Made by a program: the position numbers and the translations under genes. A stretch of 64,000 nucleotides of DNA, from positions 38,513 through 102,512 of the forward strand of contig DINS01000021.1 of NCBI GenBank assembly GCA_002426015.1, in the 5' to 3' direction. The stretch's first letter is position 1, and each line of letters begins with the position of its first letter. Positions 3,040 through 64,000 of the stretch are shown one piece after another. The DNA is from Flavobacteriaceae bacterium UBA5534. GTDB lineage: Bacteria; Bacteroidota; Bacteroidia; Flavobacteriales; Flavobacteriaceae. A model generated the notes under the pieces. The model saw nothing but the letters and a program-made list of their open reading frames with translations, did not search any database and had not been told where the DNA came from.

Positions 3040-3627
3040 CTATATTGAATCTTTAACAGTCTTATTTCCTCCTAATTCTGATTTTAAGTCCATAACGTAG
3101 TTAACTACTTGCCAACGTTCTTCTTCGTTAAGTTGATTGGCATAAGAACCCATGGCGTTTTTACCATAATAAATAGTATGATAAACACTTCCAGCAGTAA
3201 TTGCTCTACCAGCATCATCATAACTAGGTACACCCAAAATCTTTTCTCTTTTTACAAGGTTACCTTGTCCATCTCCTTTCTTTCCATGACAAATGCCACA
3301 GTAAATATCATATAACTGACCTCCACGAATGGGATCAATTTGTGTAGAATCTAACGGACTCACTACAGTTTCTTTAGCCAATAAATATCCATCATTGGTA
3401 TTATCAATGTCAAAAGGTGTAAATCCTCTTGGAATTGAACCTTCTGCTGGCAACTGGGCTTCAACACCATTTGCAAAAGCATTAGACTCACTGTAAGTTT
3501 CATATCCTACAGGTTCGTACATATTTGGCATGAATTGGTAATTAGGTCTTGTATCTTTTTTACATGAAGCAAAAGATACTAATACGATAACCAATATTGT
3601 TGTTTTAAATAAGCTTCTCATAATCAA
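3040..3627 (-). CDS. actE: alternative complex III monoheme cytochrome c subunit ActE (lipoprotein)
   Basis: 195 aa. Lipobox-like LVSFASC and a single CxxCH (CGICH). Position in the act cluster fits. Confidence 0.75.
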   Translation of the reverse strand: MIMRSLFKTTILVIVLVSFASCKKDTRPNYQFMPNMYEPVGYETYSESNAFANGVEAQLPAEGSIPRGFTPFDIDNTNDGYLLAKETVVSPLDSTQIDPIRGGQLYDIYCGICHGKKGDGQGNLVKREKILGVPSYDDAGRAITAGSVYHTIYYGKNAMGSYANQLNEEERWQVVNYVMDLKSELGGNKTVKDSI

Positions 3628-3630
3628 CTA

Positions 3631-4164
3631 TTAATGCGCTTTATCAATGATGTTAATTTCTACTGCTCCTGTCTCTTTTAATAATTGAGCTAATTCTTTT
3701 TCGTTATTGTGAATTGCAATTTCCATTAAGAAATGGTCATCAGTCGTTCTTGGATCAGGATTTTCAGCTTTTTTGAATGGCCACATCCTACTTCTTAAAT
3801 AAAATGTAATCACCATTAAATGCGCTGCAAAAAACACGGTCAACTCAAACATAATTGGCACAAACGCAGGCATGTTTTCAATATAACTGAAACTTGGTTT
3901 TCCACCAATATTTTGAGGCCAATCTTCGATCATGATGAAATTCATCATCACAATAGCAACGGTCAACCCAATGCATCCATATATAAATGAAGCAATTGCA
4001 ATACGTGTTGGGGCCAATCCCATGGCTTTGTCTAAACCATGCACTGGAAAAGGCGTAAATATTTCTTCTATATGATGTCTTTCAGCTTTCACTTTCTTGA
4101 CAGCTGACATTAACACATCATCATCAGTATAAATAGCGTGAATTACTTTTGAAGATTCTTCCAT
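3631..4164 (-). CDS. actD: alternative complex III membrane subunit ActD (DUF3341-like)
   Basis: 177 aa with two predicted TM helices. Lies between actC and actE with 3-8 nt spacers. Confidence 0.7.
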   Translation of the reverse strand: MEESSKVIHAIYTDDDVLMSAVKKVKAERHHIEEIFTPFPVHGLDKAMGLAPTRIAIASFIYGCIGLTVAIVMMNFIMIEDWPQNIGGKPSFSYIENMPAFVPIMFELTVFFAAHLMVITFYLRSRMWPFKKAENPDPRTTDDHFLMEIAIHNNEKELAQLLKETGAVEINIIDKAH

Positions 4165-4171
4165 ACTATTA

Positions 4172-5899
4172 TTAGTTTATTAGTTTTTTAGCTTGTCCAG
4201 ACCAATCATCACGTTCTGCTCTTCCTGGGAATGAGCCTGTGATTTCGTCTAACAAGTCGTATTCTCTTTTTGTCATTTTGCTCACTTGTAAGAATGTATA
4301 AATGCCTATACTATTCAGTACTTCTTCCATTTTTGGTCCAATACCATTTATTTGCTTAAGGTCGTCCGCTTTTTGAGTATTGGCATCAAACTTACCTATG
4401 CTTTCAAATAAACTATTGACTTTATCTGAAGTGTCTGCTTTTGCTTTTGAAGGTGATTTAACAGTACCTTGTTTTCCAGAAGTTCTTGGATCGGCACCTG
4501 TACCGACCAAACTATCACCTCTTTCTCTAATGTTTTTATATCGCTCACCAGATGATTTCAAGATTGTTTTTACTTCTGCCTGTGCTATTACAGGAAATGT
4601 ACGTGCGTATAATAAGAACAATACAAAGAAGAATCCAATGGTTCCGATAAAAATTCCTATATCAACAAATGTTGGTTGGAACATTGTCCAAGATGATGGT
4701 AAGTAATCTCTGTGCAATGAGGTTACGATAATAACGAAACGCTCAAACCACATACCCACGTTTACCACAATAGAGATAAAGAATGAGAACATGATACTTG
4801 TTCTTAATCTCTTGAACCACATAAACTGTGGCGAGAACACGTTACAAGACATCATCATCCAGTATGCCCAAGCGTAAGGACCTGTTGCTCTGTTTAAGAA
4901 TGCGTATTGCTCATATTCTACTCCAGAGTACCAAGCGATGAACAACTCTGTGATATATGCCACACCAACGATAGAACCTGTTATCATGATAACGATGTTC
5001 ATCAATTCGATATGTTGCACTGTAATATAATCTTCAAGGCTACATACCTTTCTCATAATGATAAGGAGGGTATTTACCATGGCAAATCCCGAGAAAATTG
5101 CTCCTGCAACGAAGTATGGTGGGAAAATTGTGGTATGCCAACCTGGTATTACTGATGTTGCGAAATCAAAGGATACAATTGTATGTACAGAAAGTACAAG
5201 TGGTGTTGCTAAACCTGCAAGTACCAAAGATACTTCCTCAAAACGTTGCCAGTCTTTTGCTCTACCTGTCCATCCAAAACTTAATAATGAATAGATTTTC
5301 TTTTGGAAAGGCTTTACTGCCCTATCTCTAATCATTGCGAAATCTGGCAATAATCCTGTCCACCAGAACACTAATGAAACCGATAAGTACGTTGAGATTG
5401 CAAAAACGTCCCAAAGTAGTGGTGAGTTAAAGTTGACCCAAAGTGAACCAAATTGATTTGGAATTGGTAATACCCAATAGCCTAACCATGGACGGCCCAT
5501 GTGAATGACAGGGAATAAACCTGCTTGAACCACCGAGAAAATAGTCATTGCTTCAGCAGAACGGTTAATCGCCATTCTCCATTTTTGACGGAACAGTAAA
5601 AGTACAGCAGAAATCAGTGTTCCTGCGTGACCAATACCAACCCACCAAACGAAGTTAGTAATATCCCAAGCCCAACCAACGGTTTTGTTAAGACCCCAAA
5701 CACCAATTCCAGTTGAAATGGTATAAATGATACACCCAATCCCCCAAAGAAATGCTACTAATGAAATAGAAAAAACTATCCACCATGCTTTATTGGCTTT
5801 TCCTTCTACAGGTCTTGCTACATCCACAGATACATCATGGTATGATTTTTCGCCTGTAACTAAAGGTCTTCTAATAGGTGCTTCGTAATGAGACGCCAT
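4172..5899 (-). CDS. actC: alternative complex III quinol-binding NrfD/PsrC-like subunit ActC, with about 125-aa soluble C-terminal extension
   Basis: 575 aa. NrfD-like polytopic core. Tail contains DDLKQINGIGPKMEEVLNSIGIYTFLQV...GRAERDDWSGQAKKL. Confidence 0.8.
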   Translation of the reverse strand: MASHYEAPIRRPLVTGEKSYHDVSVDVARPVEGKANKAWWIVFSISLVAFLWGIGCIIYTISTGIGVWGLNKTVGWAWDITNFVWWVGIGHAGTLISAVLLLFRQKWRMAINRSAEAMTIFSVVQAGLFPVIHMGRPWLGYWVLPIPNQFGSLWVNFNSPLLWDVFAISTYLSVSLVFWWTGLLPDFAMIRDRAVKPFQKKIYSLLSFGWTGRAKDWQRFEEVSLVLAGLATPLVLSVHTIVSFDFATSVIPGWHTTIFPPYFVAGAIFSGFAMVNTLLIIMRKVCSLEDYITVQHIELMNIVIMITGSIVGVAYITELFIAWYSGVEYEQYAFLNRATGPYAWAYWMMMSCNVFSPQFMWFKRLRTSIMFSFFISIVVNVGMWFERFVIIVTSLHRDYLPSSWTMFQPTFVDIGIFIGTIGFFFVLFLLYARTFPVIAQAEVKTILKSSGERYKNIRERGDSLVGTGADPRTSGKQGTVKSPSKAKADTSDKVNSLFESIGKFDANTQKADDLKQINGIGPKMEEVLNSIGIYTFLQVSKMTKREYDLLDEITGSFPGRAERDDWSGQAKKLIN

Positions 5900-57107: not shown

Positions 57108-57142
57108 AAAAAAAACATCCTGAATAAATTATATCCAGGATG
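57108..57142 (-). terminator. intrinsic terminator after the exbB-exbD operon
   Basis: The minus strand reads CATCCTGgatataatttattCAGGATG followed by TTTTTTTT. Confidence 0.7.
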
Positions 57143-57169
57143 CTTTAAAAGTATTTCTAACAAATAAAA

Positions 57170-57661
57170 TTAATAGTTTCCTTTTTTGTTTGCTGATATG
57201 TCACCTTCACGAGTGGTGTAGTTTATTTTTAAAGCATTTGCTTTACGCAATTCTTGCTTTATATCTCCTATCAATCCCATATTGGCTTCTTTATCAACTT
57301 TTAATGCTGCAGTAAGATAGTCTCTCAACTCTTCACGTTTACTAGCGCGTTCTGCCGCTACAAAAGCTTGAATATCGCTAACATCAGCAAATTTATCATT
57401 CAACTGAATACGAGATTCTTTACCATATTTACCTTGAAATCTTTCTTGAGGTTGTCCTGCATAAATGTACATGATCAAATCTTTCTTATCTAGTTTTTCA
57501 ACTTCTGTTGCACTAGGTAGTCTGTTTTCAATCATCAACGTGTTTTCACGCATTACAGTAGCAACCATAAAAAAGAATAGTAGCATAAATACAATATCTG
57601 GTAAGGATGCTGTAGATATGGCTGGTAATTCTCCCGATTTTTTCTTTTTAAATTTAGACAT
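57170..57661 (-). CDS. exbD: ExbD/TolR family biopolymer transport protein
   Basis: 163 aa with an N-terminal anchor LPDIVFMLLFFFMV. Confidence 0.8.
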   Translation of the reverse strand: MSKFKKKKSGELPAISTASLPDIVFMLLFFFMVATVMRENTLMIENRLPSATEVEKLDKKDLIMYIYAGQPQERFQGKYGKESRIQLNDKFADVSDIQAFVAAERASKREELRDYLTAALKVDKEANMGLIGDIKQELRKANALKINYTTREGDISANKKGNY

Positions 57662-60805: not shown

Positions 60806-61573
60806 TTAAATATTAAAAATTGATCTTGAATTTTGAGTAGTAATTTCGGCAATTTTTTCTTGGGGCAAACCATAAAGTTCAGATAGTTTTTCCAGTACCT
60901 TTATTATATAAACGCTTTCGTTACGTTTTCCTCTATATGGCTTTGGAGCCAAATATGGCGAATCGGTTTCCAATACAATGTGTTGTAAATCTATTTGATT
61001 GATGAATTGATCTATTTGTCCGTTTTTGAACGTTACAACACCTCCAATACCCAATTTCATGTTATAGGAAATTGCTCGTTTAGCTTGCTCCAGATTTCCT
61101 GTAAAACAATGAAAAATACCGAATAGGTCATCACTCTTTTCGGTTTCCAAAACTTCAAAAATTTCATCAAACGCATCTCTACAGTGAATGACTATCGGCA
61201 ATTGGTGGTGCTTTGCCAATCGTATTTGGTGTCTAAAGGCTTCCCGTTGTATCTGCAATGTGCTTTTATCCCAATATAAATCGATACCAATCTCGCCAAC
61301 TGCATAAAATTTTCGCTTTGTGAGCATTTCCTCAACATGCTCCAATTCGTCTTTATAGTTTTCTTTCACATGAGTAGGATGCAATCCCATCATCAAAAAA
61401 ATATGGTCTGGAAAATCGGCTTCCAATTGAAGCATCGATTTGGTATAAGTTGAATCGATAGCAGGAATAAAAAAACGTGTCACATTTTGTTCGATGGCAC
61501 GATGGATCATTGCGTGTCTATCTTCATCAAATGCTTCACTATATAAATGGGTATGTGTGTCGGTTATGATCAT
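60806..61573 (-). CDS. tatD: TatD family metal-dependent hydrolase
   Basis: 255 aa. N-terminal DTHTHL and later ETDSPYL. Confidence 0.9.
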   Translation of the reverse strand: MIITDTHTHLYSEAFDEDRHAMIHRAIEQNVTRFFIPAIDSTYTKSMLQLEADFPDHIFLMMGLHPTHVKENYKDELEHVEEMLTKRKFYAVGEIGIDLYWDKSTLQIQREAFRHQIRLAKHHQLPIVIHCRDAFDEIFEVLETEKSDDLFGIFHCFTGNLEQAKRAISYNMKLGIGGVVTFKNGQIDQFINQIDLQHIVLETDSPYLAPKPYRGKRNESVYIIKVLEKLSELYGLPQEKIAEITTQNSRSIFNI

Positions 61574-61600
61574 AAAGCAAAAATATATGTTTTACATCAT

Positions 61601-61608
61601 TATCTTTG
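61601..61608 (+). promoter_or_regulatory. -7 box TATCTTTG upstream of the retropepsin-like gene
   Basis: Perfect TAnnTTTG 17 nt before the ATG at 61626. Confidence 0.4.
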
Positions 61609-61625
61609 TATGAAATTAGTAAGAT

Positions 61626-62066
61626 ATGGAACTGTTACAGGAATTTCTTCTTAATAAAGGATATACTAAAGTTAAATTAAAACTCACAAAAACAAATCAT
61701 TTTGAAATAAAGGCCACCATCAATGGCGTAAAAGGTTTATTTATTCTGGATACTGGTGCCTCCAGTAGCTGTGTGGGTTTTGAAGCTATTGAAACCTTTA
61801 AGCTCAATGCCAAAGACAGCGAAGTTAAAGCCGCTGGTGCTGGCGCTATTGACATGCTGACTCAAATTTCAAAGAAAAACACCTTAAAGATAGGAAAGTG
61901 GAAACAGAAAAAAGTCGCATTGATTTTATTCAATTTAACGCATGTCAATACAGCATTGATAAATCATAAAGCAAAACCTGTCGATGGCATCATCGGTGCA
62001 GATATTTTGAAGAAATCCAAAGCCATCATTGATTATAACAAAAAGTATTTATACCTTAAATTGTAG
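61626..62066 (+). CDS. retropepsin-like (clan AA) aspartic protease, single domain
   Basis: 146 aa. Catalytic motif ILDTGASSS and a later GIIGADIL flap/dimer motif. No signal peptide. Confidence 0.7.
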   Translation: MELLQEFLLNKGYTKVKLKLTKTNHFEIKATINGVKGLFILDTGASSSCVGFEAIETFKLNAKDSEVKAAGAGAIDMLTQISKKNTLKIGKWKQKKVALILFNLTHVNTALINHKAKPVDGIIGADILKKSKAIIDYNKKYLYLKL

Positions 62067-62133
62067 TATAATTCTTTATAAGTAATTAAAATGTACTTAT
62101 ATTTATAATCTAAATCCCTCTTATTAATAGCAA

Positions 62134-62757
62134 ATGAACGCATCTATCATTATAGCTGATGATCATCCTCTTATACTTAAAGGACTGAATGACTTTTTGT
62201 TAGAAAAACAATATACTATTTTGGCATGCGCCAAAAATGGTAAGGAAGCTTTCGAGTTTATTGAAGAGCATTCGCCCGACATCGCTATTTTAGATATACA
62301 AATGCCTTTTTTGACTGGATTGCAAATTGCACAAAAATGTCAAGAACTGAAATTAGAGACAAAAATCATCCTCATCACTTTTGAAAAAGATGAAACTATC
62401 TATAACCAAGCAAAGAAATTGGGTGTTTATGGCTATATCCTTAAAGAGTTTGCGCTTGAAGAAATAGAAAACTGCATTGCATCAGTAATGAAAAACAAAG
62501 CCTATTTTAGTCCAGAGCTGTTAACTTATCTTGAAATTGAGGAAGTCCCGGAAGAATTGGAATTACTGACGCCAACTGAAAAAGAAGTTCTAAAGCTTAT
62601 TGCCCAAAATAAAACTGCAAAAGAGATTGGAAACATCTTATTTGCTTCATATAGAACTATTGAAAAGCACAAGCAGCATATCATTGATAAGCTGGATTTA
62701 GAGTCAAAAGGAGGTAGCTTGATCTTATTTGCTAAAGAAAACGAATCTTTTTTATAA
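62134..62757 (+). CDS. response regulator, NarL/FixJ (LuxR-type HTH) family
   Basis: 207 aa. Receiver residues DD (9-10) and ILDIQMP (Asp54). C-terminal LuxR HTH (LTPTEKEVLKLIAQNKTAKEIGNILFASYRTIEKHK). No histidine kinase gene adjacent. Confidence 0.85.
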   Translation: MNASIIIADDHPLILKGLNDFLLEKQYTILACAKNGKEAFEFIEEHSPDIAILDIQMPFLTGLQIAQKCQELKLETKIILITFEKDETIYNQAKKLGVYGYILKEFALEEIENCIASVMKNKAYFSPELLTYLEIEEVPEELELLTPTEKEVLKLIAQNKTAKEIGNILFASYRTIEKHKQHIIDKLDLESKGGSLILFAKENESFL

Positions 62758-62760
62758 AAA

Positions 62761-62780
62761 AATACGTAGTTCTACGTATT
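62761..62780. promoter_or_regulatory. perfect 9-2-9 palindrome AATACGTAGttCTACGTATT (candidate operator), copy 1
   Basis: Read directly. Contains two TACGTA hexamers 10 bp apart centre to centre. Begins 4 nt after the response regulator stop codon. Confidence 0.6.
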
Positions 62781-62850
62781 GTTTGGTGTTTACTTATTCA
62801 CGATATTTACAGTGCTATTAATTCTTAGGGAGAATTATTTTTACTTAAAA

Positions 62851-62882
62851 GCTCTGGATTGTCATTGATTCAGGGCTTTTTT
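62851..62882 (+). terminator. intrinsic terminator of module 1
   Basis: GCTCTGGATTgtcattGATTCAGGGC followed by tttttt. Confidence 0.65.
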
Positions 62883-62950
62883 GATTTTTTTACTTATATT
62901 TTAAAAAATAGATGGCTGTATATCAATAAATTAAGAAGCGTGTTGTGAAA

Positions 62951-62970
62951 AATACGTAGTTCTACGTATT
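62951..62970. promoter_or_regulatory. identical palindrome, copy 2
   Basis: Identical 20-mer. Confidence 0.6.
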
Positions 62971-63038
62971 GTTTGGTATTTGTTTATTGTCGAAATTTAC
63001 ATTGCTATTAATTAGTTAAGTAAAGGGAGATTAATGAG

Positions 63039-63069
63039 AGCTCTGGATTGTCATTGATTCAGAGCTTTT
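63039..63069 (+). terminator. terminator-like hairpin of module 2
   Basis: AGCTCTGGATTgtcattGATTCAGAGCT followed by ttt. Confidence 0.5.
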
Positions 63070-63105
63070 AATTAAAATTTTCCGTGGTTCCCAAATCCCA
63101 GCAAT

Positions 63106-63216
63106 ATGAAACAAATGAAAAATCAATTTCATCAAGAAAACAGACTTTTAATTATAGGGTTAATTGTCAGTGTCATCTTAATAATAACCGCAAATATTCT
63201 TGTTAATTTTTTTTAG
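63106..63216 (+). CDS. candidate small hydrophobic peptide (36 aa)
   Basis: Below the ORF-track size cut-off. My translation is MKQMKNQFHQENRLLIIGLIVSVILIITANILVNFF*, a polar head plus one TM-length helix. It lies between module 2 and a strong terminator. Confidence 0.35.
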   Translation: MKQMKNQFHQENRLLIIGLIVSVILIITANILVNFF

Positions 63217-63240
63217 TTATTAGTTAGTTATATTATCAAG

Positions 63241-63275
63241 AAAAAAGGGCAACTTAATTATAAGTTGCCCTTTTT
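63241..63275. terminator. bidirectional intrinsic terminator (small ORF and sucB)
   Basis: aaaaaaGGGCAACTTaattatAAGTTGCCCttttt. Confidence 0.8.
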
Positions 63276-63300
63276 ATTTTTAATACAGCTTTTCAATAAA

Positions 63301-64000
63301 CTATAACTCTAATGCTTTCTTAACATCACTATTCATTAATAACTCTGTCGGATTTTCCAATGCTTCTTTAACAGCAACTAAAAACCCAACACTTTCTTTT
63401 CCATCAATGATTCTATGATCGTAGGATAAAGCCACATACATAATTGGTCGTATTTCAACTTTGCCATTGACAGCAACAGGGCGTTCAACAATATTATGCA
63501 TTCCTAAAATACCACTTTGTGGTGGATTGATGATAGGTGTCGATAACATACTTCCAAACACACCACCATTGGAAATAGTAAAGGTTCCTCCTGTCATTTC
63601 ATCAACAGTTATTTGTCCATCACGTGCTCTGATTGCTAAACGTTTGACCTCATTTTCAACACCTCTGAAAGATAAATTTTCGGCATTTCTGATAACTGGC
63701 ACCATTAATCCTTTTGGTCCTGAAACTGCAATACTGATATCACAAAAATCGTAACTGATCATTTCCTGTCCATCAATCATTGAGTTAACTGCAGGGTACA
63801 TTTTTAATGCTCTAACCACAGCCAAAGTAAAAAAGCTCATAAACCCTAGACCAACACCATGTTTGTTTTTGAAGGTTTCTTTGTGCTCATCACGCAATGC
63901 AAAAATTGGAGACATATCAACTTCATTAAAAGTCGTCAACATGGCTGTTGTATTCTTTGCTTCGACTAAACGCTCTGCAACCTTGCGACGCAACATTGAC
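63301..64000 (-). CDS. sucB: 2-oxoglutarate dehydrogenase E2 (dihydrolipoyllysine succinyltransferase), C-terminal catalytic domain; 5' end lies outside the window
   Basis: Catalytic motif [10 protein letters not shown] and [15 protein letters not shown]. The reading frame stays open to position 64000. Confidence 0.88.

Follow-up and report, generated by a model that had tools for sequence, protein, structure and literature searches.

In Enterobacteria, the small RNAs (sRNAs) OmrA and OmrB, two EnvZ-OmpR-dependent tandem paralogues, combine a conserved 5′ seed and a 3′ terminator with a variable middle, are activated by a two-component response regulator and, as Guillier and Gottesman reportedly described in 2008, repress the mRNA of this regulator in a negative feedback. 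The Qrr1-5 sRNAs of Vibrio are several siblings under one response regulator, LuxO; qrr1 adjoins luxO, and there is feedback on the luxO mRNA. The NarL/FixJ-type regulators GacA and UvrY act through palindromic activating sites on several small RNAs, some of them in tandem, with GGA motifs in their loops (RsmX/Y/Z or CsrB/C), and in the PhoP-MgrR/MgrB and RstA-SamT systems an sRNA and a very small membrane protein are under the same activating regulator; of these proteins, MgrB feeds back on the sensor kinase. The same feedback on the kinase is described for SamT, as is the context of the OmrA/OmrB paralogues (PMC13425233). The FopS/GibS RNAs of Bacteroides thetaiotaomicron have a single-stranded conserved 5′ seed and a Rho-independent terminator, form many paralogues and repress translation at start-codon regions, whereas the FopS genes are dispersed, have canonical promoters and no known dedicated regulator, and their RNAs associate with RbpB (PMC11697453). 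Here we describe two tandem modules that directly follow the gene of an orphan LuxR-type response regulator in DNA from a marine flavobacterium (a stretch of 64 kb, hereafter the window, in whose coordinates all positions are given). Each module probably combines a palindrome that serves as operator with a −7 box of the Bacteroidota type and a non-coding RNA that measures about 66-69 nt and has an intrinsic terminator.

We consider it probable, judging from the sequence and its conservation, that these modules are sRNA genes which depend on the response regulator encoded directly upstream, act by base pairing and feed back on that regulator. They would thus form a new family of sRNAs within a regulatory kind already known, namely sibling sRNAs activated by the response regulator that they repress. 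Marine Flavobacteriaceae have a major part in the degradation of algal biomass, and to our knowledge almost nothing has been learned of post-transcriptional regulation in this group. The modules resemble OmrA/OmrB in their tandem paralogy, in their conserved ends around a variable middle and in having a response regulator as predicted activator; however, they show no sequence or Rfam relation to them, OmpR is a winged-helix and not a LuxR-type protein, omrAB does not adjoin ompR, and OmrA/B need Hfq. With Qrr/LuxO they share several siblings under one response regulator, gene adjacency and the predicted feedback on the regulator mRNA, but qrr1 and luxO are divergent whereas the present genes lie head-to-tail, the Qrr RNAs need Hfq, and no sequence match was found. 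LuxO is a sigma-54 enhancer-binding protein; in place of a −24/−12 promoter with such a regulator, the modules carry a Bacteroidota −7 box, which points to a sigma-A-type promoter, and Pfam shows neither an AAA+ nor a sigma-54 interaction domain in the regulator. The likeness to the GacA/UvrY systems lies in the NarL/FixJ regulator, the palindromic site, the several small RNAs and the GGA in a loop, but here there is one GGA-type motif per RNA, the palindrome is different, and the evidence points to base pairing. The PhoP and RstA circuits differ in that here the RNA and the small-protein gene are fused in one array and no kinase was identified. FopS/GibS belong to the same phylum and share the overall design of seed and terminator, but match the present RNAs neither in sequence nor by covariance model. 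Among all Rfam 15 families, including OmrA-B, Qrr, CsrB/RsmX/Y/Z and GibS/FopS (FopS according to its authors' own statement of deposit; PMC11697453), none matched near its gathering score. Bacteroides has no obvious homologue of either Hfq or ProQ (PMC7366714).

The features of the locus are listed in Table 1. The two modules form a direct repeat with a period of 190 nt, in which 66 nt are 89% identical (62758-62823 and 62948-63013) and a hairpin block of 31 nt is 97% identical (62850-62880 and 63039-63069). A preliminary description of the locus, made from the sequence alone, had reported two copies 190 nt apart with shared parts in the same order: an identical palindrome, the first starting 4 nt past the regulator stop codon (which ends at 62757), AGGGAGA, a nearly identical stem-loop with a T-run, and no open reading frame (ORF) of normal size. 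All these parts lie where they had been placed, with AGGGAGA at 62827-62833 and 63024-63030 and the stem-loop and T-run present in both modules, the first of them also detected by a terminator scan. The 20-mer palindrome has perfect 9-nt arms in both copies; zero copies are expected by chance, and there is no third copy within the 64 kb. In sRNA1, the predicted 5′ seed GCUAUUAAU (62814-62822) runs into hairpin 1 (62819-62837), which holds AGG in its loop, and is followed by the terminator stem-loop (62847-62880) and a U run. sRNA2 has the same 5′ end, but its terminator hairpin (core 63040-63065) is followed only by a short U run (TTTT, then AA), so that read-through past it is plausible. The consensus of the Bacteroidota −7 box is TAnnTTTG, and in Flavobacterium johnsoniae no −33 element was identifiable (PMC7366714). 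The earlier remark that the modules have no clean TAnnTTTG box holds in so far as the boxes of the window read GAnnTTTA, but a −7 box can nevertheless be predicted in each; it ends 5 nt before a conserved GCTATTAAT, and its counterparts in relatives read TAnnTTT(A/G).

Table 1. Features of the regulator-sRNA locus in the window; functions and ends of the RNA and promoter features are predictions.
Feature	Position	Strand	Basis or remark
Predicted −7 promoter box of the regulator gene, TATATTTA	62098..62105	+	Read from sequence; equivalent TAnnTTTA boxes in orthologous leaders
Putative sRNA target site in the regulator 5′ UTR	62115..62131	+	Inverted repeat, motif search, duplex prediction
Orphan NarL/FixJ-type response regulator, 207 aa, receiver and GerE/LuxR helix-turn-helix	62134..62757	+	Pfam
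Predicted operator 1, AATACGTAG-TT-CTACGTATT	62761..62780	.	Centre at about −43.5 relative to the predicted transcription start
Predicted −7 box of sRNA1, GATATTTA	62802..62809	+	Fixed place before GCTATTAAT; fixed palindrome-to-RNA spacing
Predicted sRNA1, about 69 nt	62814..62882	+	Fold, terminator scan, covariation, covariance model (72 bits)
Predicted operator 2, palindrome identical to operator 1	62951..62970	.	Repeat and palindrome search
Predicted −7 box of module 2, GAAATTTA	62992..62999	+	Geometry as in module 1
Predicted sRNA2, also small-ORF leader, about 66 nt	63004..63069	+	Fold; covariance model (59 bits)
Conserved 36-aa single-helix membrane protein, MKQMKNQFHQENRLLIIGLIVSVILIITANILVNFF	63106..63216	+	Alignment, tblastn
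Strong two-way terminator, perfect 15 bp, between the small ORF and convergent sucB, closing both the unit and sucB	63242..63275	.	Inverted repeat and terminator scan

The arrangement is conserved well beyond the window. A scan for the exact 20-mer, with one genome per species, gave more than 118 loci, mainly from Flavobacteriaceae and often with 2-4 tandem copies in the same architecture. An independent search with an alignment of the regulator protein found 581 relatives, and in the best 80 of these (63-78% identity; Gelidibacter and Subsaxibacter are the closest genera) the palindrome lies no more than a few tens of bases past the regulator stop codon in 80 of 80 loci, with 1-3 further palindromes downstream on the same strand. 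All 80 orthologous loci hold the unit, with 1-6 modules that begin a few bases past the stop codon, and it persists, with up to six copies, next to orthologues at 41-52% identity in Olleya, Lacinutrix and Wocania. In total, the unit is conserved in hundreds of species from about 30 genera, with the operator consensus ATACGTA(G/A)-NN-(C/T)TACGTAT. The spacing between the 18-nt core of the operator and the invariant GCTATTAAT is exactly 34 nt in 220 of 258 modules, and a promoter box (T/G)AnnTTT(A/G), in agreement with the Bacteroidota −7 consensus, occupies a fixed place before GCTATTAAT; this box puts the predicted transcription start near the G of GCTATTAAT and the palindrome centre at about −43.5. 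A hairpin with a T run closes 205 of the 217 distinct modules, and the predicted transcripts measure 60-72 nt. We found no publication that describes the palindrome or a matching flavobacterial sRNA with a LuxR-type or response regulator, nothing matching the module in the F. psychrophilum transcriptome paper, and no sRNA tied to a named transcription factor in the literature on Flavobacteriia. This strongly conserved sRNA family, coupled to LuxR-type regulators in marine Flavobacteriaceae, is apparently undescribed.

The regulator is a typical NarL/FixJ protein, with Pfam matches to Response_reg (89.6 bits) and a C-terminal GerE helix-turn-helix (45.9 bits). The acidic pocket and the Thr and Lys of the receiver domain are present, and residues D9, D10, D54, T82 and K104 are invariant in the alignment of orthologues. 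It reached no NCBIfam equivalog, the best being MctR (MctR/NarL-like; 118 bits against a cut-off of 300). The gene is flanked by an aspartyl protease-like gene and sucB. As noted in the preliminary description, no kinase adjoins it, which also applies to the orthologous loci; this negative covers the genes next to the regulator, as kinases were not looked for in the remainder of the window.

The clearest link between this protein and the palindrome comes from loci in which the operator has changed. A scan for the RNA alone (GCTATTAAT-N0-10-TAGGGAGAAT) detected RNAs of the window type, hereafter type A, in about 15 more genera, including Algibacter, Hyunsoonleella, Mariniflexile, Flavivirga, Yeosuana, Jejuia and Tamlana. 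Some of these loci have ATACTCAA-N-TTGAGTAT in the place of the ACGTA palindrome, and there the gene directly upstream encodes a 256-aa regulator with PAS_3 and GerE domains (PAS-LuxR) instead of a response regulator. Across all distinct modules, the ACGTA-type operator has a response regulator upstream in 281 cases and PAS-LuxR in 0, whereas the ACTCAA-type operator has PAS-LuxR upstream in 33 cases and a response regulator in 0, with the RNA unchanged. The operator therefore tracks the regulator, and this match is the strongest available evidence that the LuxR-type protein encoded upstream binds the palindrome, as had been proposed for the window from the adjacency of the two. RNA positions +1 to +30 are conserved across modules with different operators. 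A third operator type, ATACC(C/T)A-N4-T(A/G)GGTAT, precedes the same RNA 5′ end at four loci (L248, L218, L233 and L258), and at one of them, L248 from Seonamhaeicola, ATACCCA-N4-TGGGTAT stands behind a pair of a kinase and a regulator paralogue that is 32% identical to the regulator of the window.

The RNAs themselves are structured on one strand. The plus strand of sRNA1 folds at −21.5 kcal/mol (z −4.1) and that of sRNA2 at −20.0 kcal/mol (z −3.5), compared with −10.7 and −9.0 kcal/mol for the respective minus strands, which fold worse because G-U pairs turn into mismatches. An alignment of 53 sequences contains compensatory changes at 12 of 12 terminator pairs. Type-A RNAs start with GCUAUUAAU, followed by a short hairpin with AGG or UAGG in the loop; 85 of the 90 distinct type-A sequences form this hairpin 1, using 59 different stem combinations between them, and its contiguous stem averages 7.2 bp as against 4.35 bp in flank shuffles. 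Compensatory changes thus occur in both hairpins. Type-B siblings keep the invariant 5′ end GCUAUUAAU and the terminator, but differ in the middle. Coding potential is lacking: none of the 217 modules contains an ORF of at least 15 aa, and only 9 of 105 have an ATG after GGGAG. A seven-residue mini-ORF in module 2 (MRALDCH) was considered and rejected as coding, as it is not conserved. The conserved unit, the covarying hairpins and the lack of coding potential support the initial suggestion of paralogous small RNAs, and the features expected of sibling sRNA genes are present at the sequence level, namely a regulator site with a promoter, a non-coding transcript, a Rho-independent terminator, a conserved seed and several paralogues. 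In a permissive Rfam 15 scan of 61500-64000, no match on the modules had an E-value below 1.3; the best matches were SAM-Chlorobi (19.5 bits, with a gathering score of 35) and mir-355, and seven related loci yielded no matches at the gathering level.

A candidate target lies in the leader of the regulator gene. Outside the modules, GCTATTAAT occurs only once more in the window, as the reverse complement ATTAATAGC in this leader (62123-62131), where it ends 3 nt before the ATG and is complementary to the sRNA 5′ end; beside it, TCCCTC (62115-62120) is the complement of the AGGGA loop. The predicted duplex with this leader reaches −17.6 kcal/mol for sRNA1 (9 bp, an internal loop and 5 bp) and −19.2 kcal/mol for sRNA2, and among 158 pairs of an sRNA with a start region in the window, the regulator ranks 3rd for sRNA1 and 1st for sRNA2. 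For sRNA1, shuffled sequences average −8.2 ± 2.4 kcal/mol, and 0 of 500 were as good. The exact 9-mer complement is present in 47 of 104 distinct regulator leaders, and with one mismatch in 15 more, at −15 to −10 from the ATG; allowing up to one mismatch, this amounts to 62 of 104 leaders against 4 of 575 upstream regions of other ORFs, and for the CCC motif to 46 of 104 against 2 of 575. All 47 exact 9-mers are antisense and none is in sense orientation. Across loci, the mean duplex energy is −13.8 kcal/mol, compared with −7.9 kcal/mol for neighbouring genes (56 of 671 controls as good). In the Olleya/Lacinutrix/Wocania clade the leader is arranged differently and is still complementary, for example through a perfect 12-mer in locus L090. 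Since other palindrome-driven transcripts do not begin with GCTATTAAT, the 9-mer is a feature of the RNA and not a requirement of the promoter.

These observations suggest the following mechanism. A dimer of the phosphorylated regulator would bind ATACGTA(G)-NN-(C)TACGTAT at about −52 to −35, the usual position of a −33 element, and would thereby activate a sigma-A-type promoter with a −7 box (G/T)AnnTTTA. Transcription would run from the G of GCUAUUAAU to the intrinsic terminator and yield sibling sRNAs of about 66-69 nt, which would pair with their targets by two parts, the 5′ end, which is single-stranded, and the hairpin loop with AGGGA. The −7 box predicted for the regulator gene implies a 5′ UTR of about 22-24 nt, and this regulator mRNA would be one target: its 5′ UTR, about 23 nt long, would hold UCCCU and AUUAAUAGC close ahead of the AUG, and pairing there would block translation, making negative feedback on regulator translation likely. 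Further shared targets are likely because the same RNA scaffold sits behind PAS-LuxR in other genera. As no terminator lies between the regulator gene and sRNA1, the regulator mRNA probably extends to the sRNA1 terminator, which would make sRNA1 its 3′ UTR, while module 2, with its weaker terminator, would also serve as the leader of a co-regulated 36-aa membrane protein, possibly a kinase modulator.

Several points weigh against this proposal. The transcription start, the RNA ends and the binding of the regulator are all predictions, and the −7 boxes of the window differ from TAnnTTTG. About 40% of regulator leaders have no good match to the 9-mer, so the feedback is not universal, and at some loci the predicted duplex is no better than in controls. 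Beyond the 9-mer, pairing is no longer in cognate than in non-cognate pairs, and no covariation between the partners was seen. The leaders of PAS-LuxR genes are weakly complementary (−9.7 versus −7.2 kcal/mol; 23 of 96 controls reached the same level), and a few of them carry GCTATTAA at their start in sense orientation. Finally, the locus lies among housekeeping neighbours conserved in synteny (asparaginase, TatD, the aspartyl protease-like gene, regulator, RNA array, small ORF and convergent sucB), so that co-location alone could reflect vertical inheritance.

The complementarity would also be accounted for if the modules acted purely in cis, module 1 being the 3′ UTR and terminator of the regulator mRNA that pairs with its own 5′ UTR, and module 2 the leader or attenuator of the small ORF, with no free sRNAs. 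This is consistent with the lack of a terminator between the regulator stop codon (62757) and module 1, with the complementarity of the regulator 5′ UTR to module 1, and with the weak U run of module 2 ahead of a conserved small ORF 36 nt later. We nevertheless regard it as unlikely, because every module has its own operator and a −7 box at a fixed distance, arrays of up to 6 modules with strong terminators occur, the RNA stands behind the PAS-LuxR gene with no small ORF downstream, and the small ORF of Gelidibacter has a separate operator and a plain leader.

The hairpin-loop motif raises another alternative, to which we assign a still somewhat lower probability, namely that the RNAs sequester a protein as Csr/Rsm RNAs do, with a regulator comparable to GacA/UvrY and AGGGA loops that titrate a CsrA-like or RRM protein, or the ribosomal anti-Shine-Dalgarno sequence. 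The NarL/FixJ-family regulator with its palindromic upstream site, the GGA-containing motif in a covarying hairpin loop, the tandem gene copies (up to 6 per locus) and the use of one scaffold behind different regulators would all fit. However, Rsm/Csr RNAs have several such motifs, whereas each type-A RNA has a single AGGGA and many type-B siblings have none; the GacA box TGTAAG-N6-CTTACA is missing, the modules have no match to CsrB or Rsm in Rfam, and sequestration does not explain why the regulator leader holds exact complements to the two RNA motifs. We also know of no CsrA, and hence of no such partner, in Bacteroidota, which we count against it.

The palindromes might act only at the DNA level, as a binding-site cluster for titration or autoregulation or as a repetitive extragenic palindromic (REP)-like repeat, and the hairpins might be ordinary terminators; indeed, the palindrome occurs at other loci of the same genomes before unrelated genes. 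This reading appears highly improbable, since positions +1 to +30 are conserved despite different operators, hairpin 1 covaries, and the G-U pairs make the fold strand-specific. In addition, the two copies stand alone in the window instead of being scattered over many intergenic regions, with only two strong covariance-model matches (Table 1; both RNAs were in the training set of the model), and elsewhere the modules are tied to regulator genes, so that the dispersed REP-like family considered in the preliminary description is not what the data show.

The small ORF behind module 2 belongs to a conserved family, as an ORF of 32-37 aa with the pattern ...NKLLIIGLILSAILIITANILVNFF follows the last operator in 25 of 30 sites examined, and tblastn detected it in 80 of 128 loci despite its short length. 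The protein matches no Pfam or NCBIfam family, and an exhaustive search of 1.8 billion proteins returned five representatives, none of them annotated. In Gelidibacter, the ORF has its own operator and a plain leader apart from the RNA modules, whereas in the window and many relatives the leader resembles an sRNA in its own right, though with a weaker U run, for which reason module 2 appears to be both sibling RNA and leader. The original wording, small RNAs or leaders, is thus retained for the RNA unit and is to be extended for module 2, which additionally leads into this ORF. By analogy with MgrB and SamT, the 36-aa protein may modulate the kinase of the regulator, which is speculation. That the hydrophobic protein is instead the toxin of a type I toxin-antitoxin system and the adjoining repeated RNAs its antitoxins is the least probable reading, as the small-ORF mRNA is not complementary to sRNA1 (−11.9 kcal/mol against −12.2 ± 2.6 for shuffles, 97 of 200 being as good), the RNAs lie on the strand of the ORF without overlap, the ORF has the same type of regulator-dependent promoter, and the PAS-LuxR cassettes carry the RNA with no such ORF.

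Beyond regulator-dependent sibling sRNAs as such, a broader reading may be entertained, tentatively and with considerable doubt, in which the RNA of about 67 nt is a portable output that has been wired to at least three LuxR-type regulators with matching palindromes: the orphan response regulator, the PAS-LuxR one-component sensor and the kinase-linked paralogue. Their signals would converge on one seed, a regulator transcript with the target in its 5′ UTR and the RNA as its 3′ UTR would autoregulate in cis and in trans, and the 36-aa peptide would close a second loop on the kinase. If this is true, several signals would meet in one RNA seed within a phylum in which no known sRNA chaperones have been found.

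The locus offers a complete testable circuit, with a regulator, an operator of known sequence, 1-6 sibling sRNAs that have a defined seed, the regulator mRNA as predicted feedback target and a micro-protein under the same control, and it could show sRNA-target pairing where Hfq and ProQ have not been found. The change of operator at a constant RNA is a rare natural specificity swap that could be used to study DNA recognition by LuxR-type helix-turn-helix domains. The family could join Rfam, where it would annotate many seemingly empty intergenic regions.

Some further observations concern the surroundings of the regulator and its RNAs. The gene upstream of the regulator encodes a retropepsin-like aspartyl protease of 146 aa (61626-62066, plus strand), takes this place in 125 of 128 loci and is more conserved (77-88% identity) than the regulator (41-78%). 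In Gilvirhabdus luticola (locus L245), a degenerate palindrome and a type-A sRNA (789-814) come directly after the aspartyl protease-like gene, with no regulator ORF called in between; the regulator may have been lost there and the RNA kept. A partial Rfam match to CsrC at 63242-63275 is spurious, as it covers only the hairpin of the two-way terminator. A third candidate copy of the module in the window, at 57113-57177 on the minus strand (30 bits), was rejected: it is the terminator after exbD at the 3′ end of an exbB-exbD-exbD operon, where ACTATTAAT overlaps the stop codon and is accompanied by a CCTGGAT...ATTCAGG hairpin, and it is not conserved in relatives, which show only a variable terminator there, so that the resemblance is due to chance.

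Among the loci with other operators, the PAS-LuxR cassette is found in L239, L242, L206, L229, L271 and about 30 others (Algibacter, Hyunsoonleella, Mariniflexile, Tamlana and others); in L239, the PAS-LuxR gene spans 3103-3873 and the RNA starts at 3933 (reverse-complement coordinates). In L248, again in reverse-complement coordinates, the regulator gene spans 4071-4688, with the operator near 4790 and the RNA start near 4841. The palindromic 20-mer itself, AATACGTAGTTCTACGTATT, lies 40-200 nt downstream of pairs of a kinase and a NarL-type regulator in distant phyla, which adds to the evidence that the operator follows the regulator and suggests that the specificity of this operator is conserved across phyla. 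Such loci include L011, L014 and L118 from Chloroflexota, L017 from Piscirickettsiaceae (a gammaproteobacterium), L024 and L006, and in the Chloroflexota the 20-mer precedes TadE-like genes.

The palindrome is also present at other loci of the same genomes, upstream of heterogeneous unrelated genes, and no clear functional theme emerged among the genes behind these other sites. A second class of palindrome-driven transcripts, dispersed in Winogradskyella and relatives (L005, L013, L030, L038, L043, L047, L056, L073 and L089), has CTAACTTCGCT as its −7 region; behind this comes a conserved element with a hairpin, TAaC..GATATAGTc-ATTaAAAC-gACtATATC-AcTAAaGTTGtACA, which is about 60 nt long. It adjoins very varied genes, some of them defence- or mobile-element-like, and may represent another RNA family in the same regulon.

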